In this document: positions 44,586 to 44,883 of the stretch, in pieces
Numbering within the stretch: position 1 is the stretch's first letter
Layout: every line of letters starts with the position of its first letter
Origin: a virus
Taxonomy: Duplodnaviria; Caudoviricetes
Reading direction: 5' to 3' (one strand)
Virus record (IMG/VR): IMGVR_UViG_641736227_000002
DNA length: 64,000 nucleotides
Notes under the pieces: generated by a model
Database searches by the model: none
What the model was told of the DNA's origin: nothing
What the model saw: the letters and a program-made list of their open reading frames with translations, nothing else
Position numbers and translations under genes: made by a program

Positions 44586-44717
44586 ATACGGGCTTAGCCC
44601 GTAGCAATATATTTTATGTGCCATGCCGGGCACACCGTGTTCTTCGAATAATTATTTTTTGTATAGGACAGAACACAGAAGACCCATTACGGTTGTAAAG
44701 TTTTGCTCCTTAAAAAC

Positions 44718-44883
44718 CACCTGTGCGCCCTCGTTTCGTACTCACGTTTCCCATCGTTCACGCACTTTCCTTAATTACTCCAGAGCCATTCGCACATTGC
44801 ATCTTCCACGTAAATACAACTTTTTTGCGAATGAGTTTTTTGCGACCCGCATCGTGGAACTTTATTGGGCCGCCGTCTAGGTG
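44718..44883 (-). ncRNA. Candidate structured RNA with kissing loops
   Basis: Nested stems plus complementary loop segments TTCCACG/CGTGGAA; G-U pairs favour minus strand. Confidence 0.55.

Follow-up and report, generated by a model that had tools for sequence, protein, structure and literature searches.

Phage tRNA islands are usually annotated as tRNAs separated by empty spacers. The tRNA cluster of the phage T4 also encodes two stable RNAs of ~120-140 nt and unknown function (species 1 and 2, rnaC/rnaD), which are matured from the precursor shared with the tRNAs, and in phi29 the pRNA (RF00044; ~120-170 nt) forms a ring at the packaging motor by pairing of complementary loops between molecules. 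ROOL (RF03087) and GOLLD (RF01998) are structured non-coding RNAs (ncRNAs) of phages and prophages, often encoded beside tRNA genes, with which they are possibly co-transcribed, and their function is unknown (10.1101/2024.12.08.627333; PMC5737381). Both RNAs have a tertiary and quaternary structure built by kissing loops (10.1101/2024.12.08.627333). In Escherichia coli, the 3'ETS-leuZ sponge and the metZ-metW-metV internal spacer are precursor parts freed by tRNA processing that can act alone (10.1101/2021.04.25.441314; PMC8166272). Here we describe the 304-nt gap (the spacer) between a tRNA-like element and a tRNA-Ser(GCT) gene in a 64,000-nt stretch of phage DNA (IMG/VR record IMGVR_UViG_641736227_000002, Caudoviricetes; hereafter the window, to which all plain position numbers refer). 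This cassette lies in the leader of the late (packaging) operon of a Lachnospiraceae-type prophage, within a 3.59-Mb single-contig genome, and the spacer is considered on the strand of both flanking tRNA-shaped genes (minus).

In our opinion, the 304 nt are probably a modular, structured internal transcribed spacer of a phage tRNA cassette, read together with the tRNAs on the minus strand. Very probably it is functional at the RNA level, as a non-coding part of the late transcript. The spacer can be divided into module A, which comprises a closing stem and hairpins H1 to H3, and module B, composed of a linker, hairpin H4 and the hairpin pair H5-H6 (Table 1). Its best-supported part is the 3' ~52 nt, which, judging from a covariance-model match, is a diverged copy of a new and widespread tRNA-island leader motif.

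Like ROOL and GOLLD, the spacer is prophage-borne and adjoins tRNA genes. However, it matches neither covariance model even at E 10, it is 304 nt long, compared with 580-800 nt and many pseudoknotted stems in those RNAs, it is modular and partly dispensable, its module A has a very narrow distribution, and the kiss proposed between its H1 and H2 loops shows no covariation. With the 3'ETS-leuZ sponge it shares the location within a tRNA transcription unit but outside the tRNAs; the enterobacterial sponges are short, act by base-pairing and are Hfq-dependent, whereas the spacer is long and hairpin-rich and belongs to a phage of Firmicutes. It resembles the T4 stable RNAs in being a small structured RNA among phage tRNA genes, although T4 is a virulent phage of a Gram-negative host and no sequence relation is to be expected. 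As in phi29 pRNA, the spacer carries mutually complementary loops and is encoded just upstream of packaging genes. However, it gives no match to RF00044, and the prophage has a conventional set of packaging genes (TerS of the Terminase_2 type, TerL of the PBSX family, and a portal), in contrast to the phi29-like system, which lacks TerS. To our knowledge, no RNA is used by such conventional TerS/TerL/portal sets.

The leader motif came to light when the tRNA-like flank of the spacer was followed into other phages, where the sequence upstream of tRNA-like elements aligns to H5-linker-H6. A degenerate pattern derived from both sets of contigs and scanned in IMG/VR matched more than 114 contigs, which is a lower bound; 58 distinct cores and 92 distinct downstream contexts were distinguished among the matches listed. 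The motif consists of H5, with a GUG/CAC stem and a GGCAU-containing loop, a linker RWWAAAYA-NNN-UGCUA, and H6, a hairpin of 7-8 bp, and in all the matches listed a tRNA or tRNA-like element begins 1-4 nt after it. The 92 contexts listed comprise 37 tRNA-like elements with an 8-bp acceptor stem, 40 tRNAs called by ARAGORN (Asn, Met, Ser, Tyr, Gln, Ile, Val and His) and 15 tRNA-like starts that ARAGORN does not call and that were judged by eye.

A covariance model of the motif (R1), built from other phages only, with the cassette-family sequences left out, has its sole significant match within the 64 kb at 44585-44637 (minus strand; 31.2 bits, E ~5e-7) and matches seven cassette relatives at 25-31 bits. 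The window copy represents a diverged subtype (31 bits vs 58-86 bits for other copies). It has the features of the motif, with a 7-bp H6 that ends at 44587 and a tRNA-Ser that starts at 44585, and it precedes this internal tRNA-Ser rather than the first element of the island. Both partners vary in 5 of the 12 pairs in the 64-sequence, model-fitted alignment of the motif, a number reached in none of 500 shuffles, and slid controls gave far lower values. The H6 stem occurs in three classes, each fully complementary: ACGGGC/GCCCGU, ACCCGG/CCGGGU and ACCGUC/GGCGGU. The prophage copy is the only one in its own genome, and one of 150 same-family genomes carries the motif, which there precedes a long tRNA-like element and, beyond this, tRNA-Tyr, tRNA-Ser and tRNA-Lys. 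As indicated by this distribution, the motif is phage-specific and not a host tRNA leader.

The motif matches no Rfam family; the best score, 14.9 bits for the copy of contig L256 against a gathering threshold of 36, was obtained with the model of the SAM-II aptamer (RF00521). A segment of the motif, CGUG...CACGUUAAA.A..U.GCUAA, does resemble the SAM-II consensus, but this is a resemblance only, and the motif stands in a tRNA context rather than upstream of a met gene. A further similarity, which we take to be a resemblance only, links the same kind of segment to the 5' half of the pistol ribozyme (P1, an AAA linker and UUGCU); there is no pistol match at E 10, and the loop length, the pseudoknot partner, the 3' strand of P2 and the G-U cleavage context are absent. 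A reading of the motif as a sigma-54-type or a -35/-10 promoter was rejected, as the spacing does not match.

Several other RNAs and genes were noted near copies of the motif. In L256 (MT838775.1, a human-gut phage contig), a RAGATH-21 RNA (RF03097, 86.9 bits; 657-733) lies ~170 nt upstream of the leader motif and the tRNA-like element, which are then followed by two tRNAs with spacers of 130-160 nt. In contig L273, CCGUGGAAG is found in the loop of a small hairpin upstream of the leader motif. In another phage group the leader motif, a tRNA-like element and a tRNA island are placed directly upstream of a gene that is presumably a GP20-type scaffold gene, as its start, compared by eye, resembles such genes.

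Homologues of the whole spacer were recovered using the two flanking proteins, exact DNA patterns and a profile hidden Markov model as anchors. They form ~19 distinct versions, 85-99% identical, all from closely related phages on human-gut contigs of IMG/VR and ENA. A scan of ENA metagenomes yielded 10 additional spacer contigs, and wider IMG/VR searches for module A, with patterns anchored on three different parts of it, returned the same small family only (~15 contigs). Spacer homologues were absent from the BLAST results for 400 same-family genomes, from GTDB species representatives (two exact patterns) and from GenBank phages, and a profile of module A, run with nhmmer through 2.9 Mb of DNA from related phages, gave no match. 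No similarity to the spacer occurs elsewhere in its own 3.59-Mb genome, and capture from the host was rejected.

The context of the homologues is constant: a tRNA-like element or a genuine tRNA-Met(CAT) is followed by the spacer and then by tRNA-Ser(GCT) or an odd derivative of it. More distant relatives, in which the spacer is absent, have the order regulator, hicAB, terminator, tRNA-Met, terS. One such gene pair, in contig L098 (3662-4317), appears from its N-terminal sequence alone to be a toxin-antitoxin pair of the HicA/HicB type; it has its own strong sigma-70 promoter and lies between the late regulator and the terminator-tRNA-Met-terS junction.

Within the spacer family the individual modules come and go. 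Module A occurs without module B in contigs L173 and L246. There (L173 11085-11294; L246 21-306) a 94-nt deletion fuses the loop of H3 with the variable-arm/T-arm region of tRNA-Ser, so that module B is lost together with the tRNA's 5' half; the junction is identical in these two independent contigs. The reverse case, with module B present and module A missing, is found in L011 and L014. The H2 outer stem is deleted in L092, and module B of L174 contains a 63-nt insert. The original prediction of a single unit closed by CACCT/AGGTG did not survive this comparison, since modules A and B occur apart and the two 3' hairpins (H5-H6) are missing in six versions. Because the modules separate, and because deletions and inserts are tolerated across relatives, the spacer is not one self-closing RNA; as far as can be judged from the homologues, it is a composite of separable RNA modules. 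The cassette itself is a mosaic block, with breakpoints at about 45041, 44958/44911, 44700 and 44498. The insert of L174 (~2605-2670) holds a hairpin, CGUGG-AGCGA-CCACG, which combines both words of the proposed kiss, here paired locally.

Table 1. Features of the cassette and its upstream flank, listed in the order in which they are read on the minus strand
Feature	Position	Strand	Basis or remark
Late regulator, 180 aa	45133-45675	minus	phrog_36, faint sigma-70/ECF match
Terminator-like hairpin + U-run	44966-44994	minus	13 pairs then TTTTTAT; between the late-regulator gene and the tRNA-like element, immediately before the latter
tRNA-like element	44890-44958	minus	8-bp acceptor, AAUGGCA D loop, canonical T arm, abnormal anticodon arm (6-7 nt loop GUCGCU)
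UUUUUA trailer	44884-44889	minus	follows the CCA-less upstream tRNA-like element or tRNA; sequence; presumed RNase Z side of the spacer
Module A: closing stem, H1, H2, H3, then G + UUUUU	44717-44884	minus	lineage-restricted
Closing stem CACCT/AGGTG	44883-44879 / 44722-44718	minus	sequence
H1 GCGGCCC/GGGTCGC	44873-67 / 44848-42 (span 44842-44873)	minus	sequence
H1 loop UUCCACG (TTCCACG), 5' kiss partner	44853-44859	minus	AUCCACG in most homologues
H2 outer stem CATTCGCA/TGCGAATG	44833-26 / 44794-87 (span 44787-44833)	minus	sequence
H2 inner stem TTGTATT/GATGCAA	within 44787-44833	minus	sequence
H2 loop CGUGGAA, 3' kiss partner	44804-44810	minus	CGUGGAAGAU invariant, 19/19 versions
H3 GTGCGT/GCGCAC	44765-60 / 44728-23 (span 44723-44765)	minus	abuts the 3' strand of the closing stem
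Linker UUUUAAGGAGCAAAACUUUACAACCGUAAUGGGUCUU, largely unpaired, nearly invariant	44679-44716	minus	with H4, the most conserved block of the cassette
H4, 9-bp stem CTGTGTTCT/AGAACACGG	44678-70 / 44643-35	minus	conserved 26-nt A/U-rich loop
H5 - AUAAAAUAUAUUGCUA - H6	44586-44637	minus	diverged leader-motif copy (predicted), ends 1 nt before tRNA-Ser
H5 GTGCC/GGCAC	44633-18	minus	sequence
H6 TACGGGC/GCCCGTA	44603-44587	minus	sequence
tRNA-Ser(GCT), CCA-less	44501-44585	minus	passes the Rfam gathering score

The stems of the original prediction were all located on the minus strand (Table 1), with the sequences it had given. The minimum free energy fold of the 304 nt recovers the closing stem, H1, H2, H3, H4 and H6, and that of module A alone the closing stem, H1, H2 and H3. 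Module B (the 3' 130 nt) has a thermodynamic z-score of -2.97 and is the sole stretch with good support of this kind. RNAalifold picks the long-range helices ACCUA/UGGGU and GCUCU/GGAGC over the closing stem, and the GCUCU/GGAGC helix is consistent with both changes observed in AAGGAG.

When the predicted structure was laid over the alignment of 19 homologues, 96.8% of the stem cells paired, and the six local hairpins proved to be kept mostly via pair-preserving changes. These include compensatory exchanges of G-C for A-U in H1 (three sequences), of C-G for U-A in the outer stem of H2 (four sequences) and of C-G for U-A in H5 (L011), as well as one-sided, mostly wobble, changes in 17 further pair types. 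The GUGCGU/RCGCAC stem of H3 is constant, with a loop that varies from ~8 to 31 nt. H4 is 100% paired, with four one-sided wobble changes, and its stem is shortened but kept in L011; the stems of H5 and H6 are retained in L092 although the loops differ. The closing stem is invariant in all versions, and hence uninformative for covariation.

Mean pairwise identity along the cassette reaches 0.94-0.98 at 44740-44640 and 0.86-0.93 in module A, compared with 0.74-0.90 for tRNA-Ser and 0.71-0.89 for the slot of the first tRNA. In six contigs (three distinct versions of the downstream genes) in which synteny continues into those genes, the spacer is 0.89-0.99 identical vs ~0.70 at the four-fold sites of the syntenic genes, a contrast that is compatible with purifying selection. 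The spacer is better conserved than the tRNAs of its own cassette, and the covarying leader motif to which part of it belongs is missing from Rfam and from genome annotation. The position of the motif, abutting a tRNA or a look-alike, suggests that phages use tRNA-shaped units to cut structured RNAs from long transcripts. If true, the function of phage RNAs that lie beside tRNAs, ROOL and GOLLD among them, could be approached by experiment.

A number of observations weigh against the interpretation of the 304 nt as a structured internal transcribed spacer. For each of the modules there is a seemingly viable relative that does without it, and the thermodynamic z-scores of the whole spacer (-1.38) and of module A (-0.86; -0.78 for the opposite strand) are unremarkable. 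Covariation within the narrow family is thin, with 2 of 61 pairs changing on both sides among the 19 homologues. The conservation signal is confounded by mosaic recombination: in L011 the downstream genes are identical and module B only 86% identical, and in L092 the regulator is 99% identical and the spacer more diverged. The argument that G-U pairs fit the minus strand stood only in part. Polymorphic pairs show a G-U:A-C ratio of 15:5 (p = 0.02), which falls to 11:5 (p ~0.1) after correction for ascertainment bias, i.e. without the G-U pairs of the window itself; the wobble asymmetry is therefore suggestive only as an argument for the strand.

The spacer has also been viewed as a discrete, trans-acting ncRNA, closed by CACCU/AGGUG and dependent for its function on a kiss of 6-7 bp between H1 and H2, either intramolecular or intermolecular (dimers or rings). 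This appears unlikely to us, although several observations speak for it. The complementarity of the two loops exists, and loop shuffling gave P = 0.002 for a complement of at least 7 nt and P = 0.012 for at least 6 nt in that loop pair; the computed duplex energy is -8.8 to -10.6 kcal/mol and the contact is worth about -8 to -10 kcal/mol, while the same segments arranged as a nested helix would cost 9 kcal/mol. Moreover, nothing in H1 and H2 varies as little as the two loops, which are more constant than their own stems, with UCCACG and CGUGGA unchanged in every version, and ROOL and GOLLD, likewise tRNA-adjacent phage RNAs, assemble by kissing loops (10.1101/2024.12.08.627333). On the other hand, ~36 loop/linker pairs were open to inspection, which brings the corrected P to roughly 0.05-0.4. 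The 7-nt match noticed originally is present in the window, but its seventh pair (U-A) is found in no more than 5 of the 14 informative sequences, the other nine having an uncompensated A-A. The homologues thus provide no covarying position for the kiss: six pairs never vary, and are uninformative, and the seventh is lost. The invariant closing stem competes with the two long-range helices mentioned above, module A has an unremarkable z-score, it is missing in L011 and L014 and shortened in L173 and L246, and L092 lacks the outer stem of H2. The kiss contact as such is plausible from the loop sequences, and the kissing-loop idea is at present a modest lead. We regard as quite improbable its extended form, in which module A would be freed by RNase Z and RNase P and would self-associate via intermolecular UCCACG/CGUGGA pairing into dimers or rings, as a small analogue of the ROOL/GOLLD cages or the pRNA ring made as packaging starts, with H5-H6 being a new, widespread class of phage RNA that directs or caps processing.

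It is unlikely, at about the level of the trans-acting ncRNA, that the spacer is nearly functionless, i.e. that the cassette has recently been spread by recombination among close phages, acting as a "linker" at a mosaic junction, with hairpins that are incidental or weakly selected. The strong mosaicism, the narrowness of the family, the tolerance of large deletions and the weak z-scores would all be in agreement with such a history. What argues against it is the core, more conserved than the tRNAs of the same cassette, the mostly pair-preserving nature of stem changes, and H5-H6, for which selection as an RNA motif is clear across a much broader range of phages. A site acting at the DNA level (a promoter, a pac or TerS recognition region, or a sequence bound by the late regulator), or else a mobile-element relic with CACCT/AGGTG as terminal inverted repeats and the TTTTT runs as target duplication, is a decidedly doubtful alternative. 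The distance from the cassette to terS downstream is ~25 nt in many relatives, the Terminase_2 TerS and PBSX-family TerL point to headful packaging, part of the pac site of SPP1 lies upstream of the small-terminase gene, and the spacer contains a TTCCACG...CGTGGAA inverted repeat and A-tracts; in addition, TTTTT and CACCT/AGGTG bracket module A, and L011 and L014 provide "empty" sites. However, in the window phage the cassette and terS are 1.1 kb and two genes apart, and near-identical terS genes occur in phages without module A (L011, L014) or module B (L173). The sole sigma-70-like match in the spacer (44887-44859) is not conserved in homologues, neither CGTGGAAG nor TCCACG is meaningfully enriched in the window, as operator-like repeats would be, and wobble-type changes favour pairing at the RNA level. 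A MITE-like insertion was rejected, as module A is single-copy in the genome and its context is always the same.

It is hardly credible that the gap is taken up by a gene for a small protein or by a tRNA gene in decay. There are open frames of 79-91 codons on both strands, and pseudo-tRNAs are frequent in phage tRNA arrays. However, the minus-strand open reading frame (ORF) 44758-45006, which the original prediction had named as the possible conserved feature, is not maintained. The versions of the spacer differ by indels of 1, 2, 15, 20, 23, 47, 63 and 94 nt, which break the frame, substitutions are spread evenly over the codon positions of this ORF and of both plus-strand ORFs, without third-position bias, the longest open frame changes from version to version, and the two longest ORFs have no PHROG or Pfam match. 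By these signs the spacer is non-coding. Nor does it match a tRNA model at E up to 10, and its alignment with tRNA-Ser and the tRNA-like element is no better than with shuffled controls.

The original prediction could not assign the spacer to a known RNA family, and the search gave no family either: only tRNA-Ser and a GP20-b motif (37699-37763) pass the gathering thresholds in the window, and Rfam 15, searched at E up to 10, gave no credible match inside 44586-44889 or in the spacers of L002 and L256. Two further candidate roles were rejected. An RNA anti-CRISPR or solitary repeat was dismissed as the two CRISPR arrays of the host share only GTGGAA with the H2 loop, and a CsrA sponge as the five GGA motifs present are about what the composition predicts.

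Returning to the reading of the 304 nt as an internal transcribed spacer, its co-transcription, cleavage sites, stability and any function are what we infer from the layout of the cassette. In Firmicutes, the substrates of RNase Z are CCA-less tRNAs with a U-rich trailer. Both types of upstream element, the tRNA-like one and tRNA-Met, have no encoded CCA and are followed by UUUUU, and H6 ends 1 nt before tRNA-Ser, so that release by RNase Z and RNase P is a reasonable inference. RNase Z would cut after the CCA-less upstream tRNA or tRNA-like element, ahead of UUUUU, and RNase P 1 nt past H6, at the mature 5' end of tRNA-Ser. The product would be a ~300-nt spacer RNA with the G+C-rich H6 as a cap at its 3' end, which could shield it from 3' exonucleases. 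Most likely, the hairpins would act in cis, guiding or insulating processing and stabilizing the released fragment, and a role of the released RNA in trans is possible. The same logic may apply to the wider motif, with an H6-capped leader RNA being freed from whichever tRNA or look-alike comes next. We propose that non-decoding tRNA look-alikes are retained because they would serve as processing signals.

The element upstream of the spacer was correctly recognized as tRNA-like: ARAGORN calls it in homologues and, with a lowered threshold, in the window. It is not a canonical tRNA, since its best Rfam match is tRNA-Sec at 22.4 bits (the RF00005 threshold is 29) and ARAGORN assigns it an 8-bp acceptor and a 6-nt loop, where a canonical tRNA has a 7-bp acceptor and a 7-nt anticodon loop with a purine at position 37. 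Its relative in L256 scores 25.5 bits, and the 8-bp acceptor, D and anticodon stems are kept via compensatory changes in L256 and L002. In cassette relatives the slot may be filled by a true tRNA-Met(CAT). Look-alikes of this kind form a family of non-decoding elements (window 44890-44958, minus; L256 905-974; L002 ~1507-1574, minus; L412 ~1553-1663), characterized by an 8-bp acceptor and a canonical T arm, with AAUGG(C/U)A as the D loop and G(U/C)CGC as the anticodon-like loop. Their scores, 22-25 bits, are under the Rfam tRNA threshold, and at least 45 further IMG/VR contigs carry them. The tRNA-Ser slot is also variable. In L065 (2902-2981), L066 (2902-2981) and L015 (27-106) it is occupied by an 80-nt type-II-like tRNA with a rebuilt anticodon arm, called "His(atg)" by ARAGORN and with C at position 37, which is an unusual tRNA or else a gene in decay.

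On the minus strand, the genes for a nucleoid-associated protein and the late regulator are followed by the terminator-like hairpin and the tRNA-like element, and then by the 304-nt gap, tRNA-Ser(GCT), the genes for an HExxH protein and a macro-domain protein, and those for TerS, TerL and the portal. No convincing promoter or terminator was found between the tRNA-like element and tRNA-Ser. The slot of the terminator-like hairpin is occupied in relatives by other sequences of the same shape. Downstream of the late-regulator gene there is also an 18-bp, G+C-rich imperfect palindrome (CACGGCGGCGCCGCTGTG; 45059-45076, minus), followed, with 44966-45020 as the second stretch concerned, by TTGAAAC and then by the strong terminator-like hairpin. 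The layout of a regulator gene, a promoter-like site, an early terminator and late genes is reminiscent of the Q-PR'-tR' antitermination system of lambda.

Between tRNA-Ser and terS of the window phage (43427-44481, minus) two genes encode a 154-aa protein with a HEIVH motif (phrog_1233) and an ADP-ribose-binding protein of 199 aa with a macro domain. This gene pair is missing from many relatives, in which tRNA-Ser abuts terS. Because in many relatives homology ends at tRNA-Ser and restarts at terS ~25 nt on, the two genes look like an inserted accessory pair, possibly with a role in counter-defence. The two CRISPR arrays of the host, located outside the window (G000:C1:361359-361964 and 370944-374396), have 30-nt repeats ending in GGAATTTAGAG and bear no relation to the cassette. 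The GP20-b RNA motif mentioned above (RF03003, 48.5 bits; minus strand) resides in the head-gene region of the same prophage.

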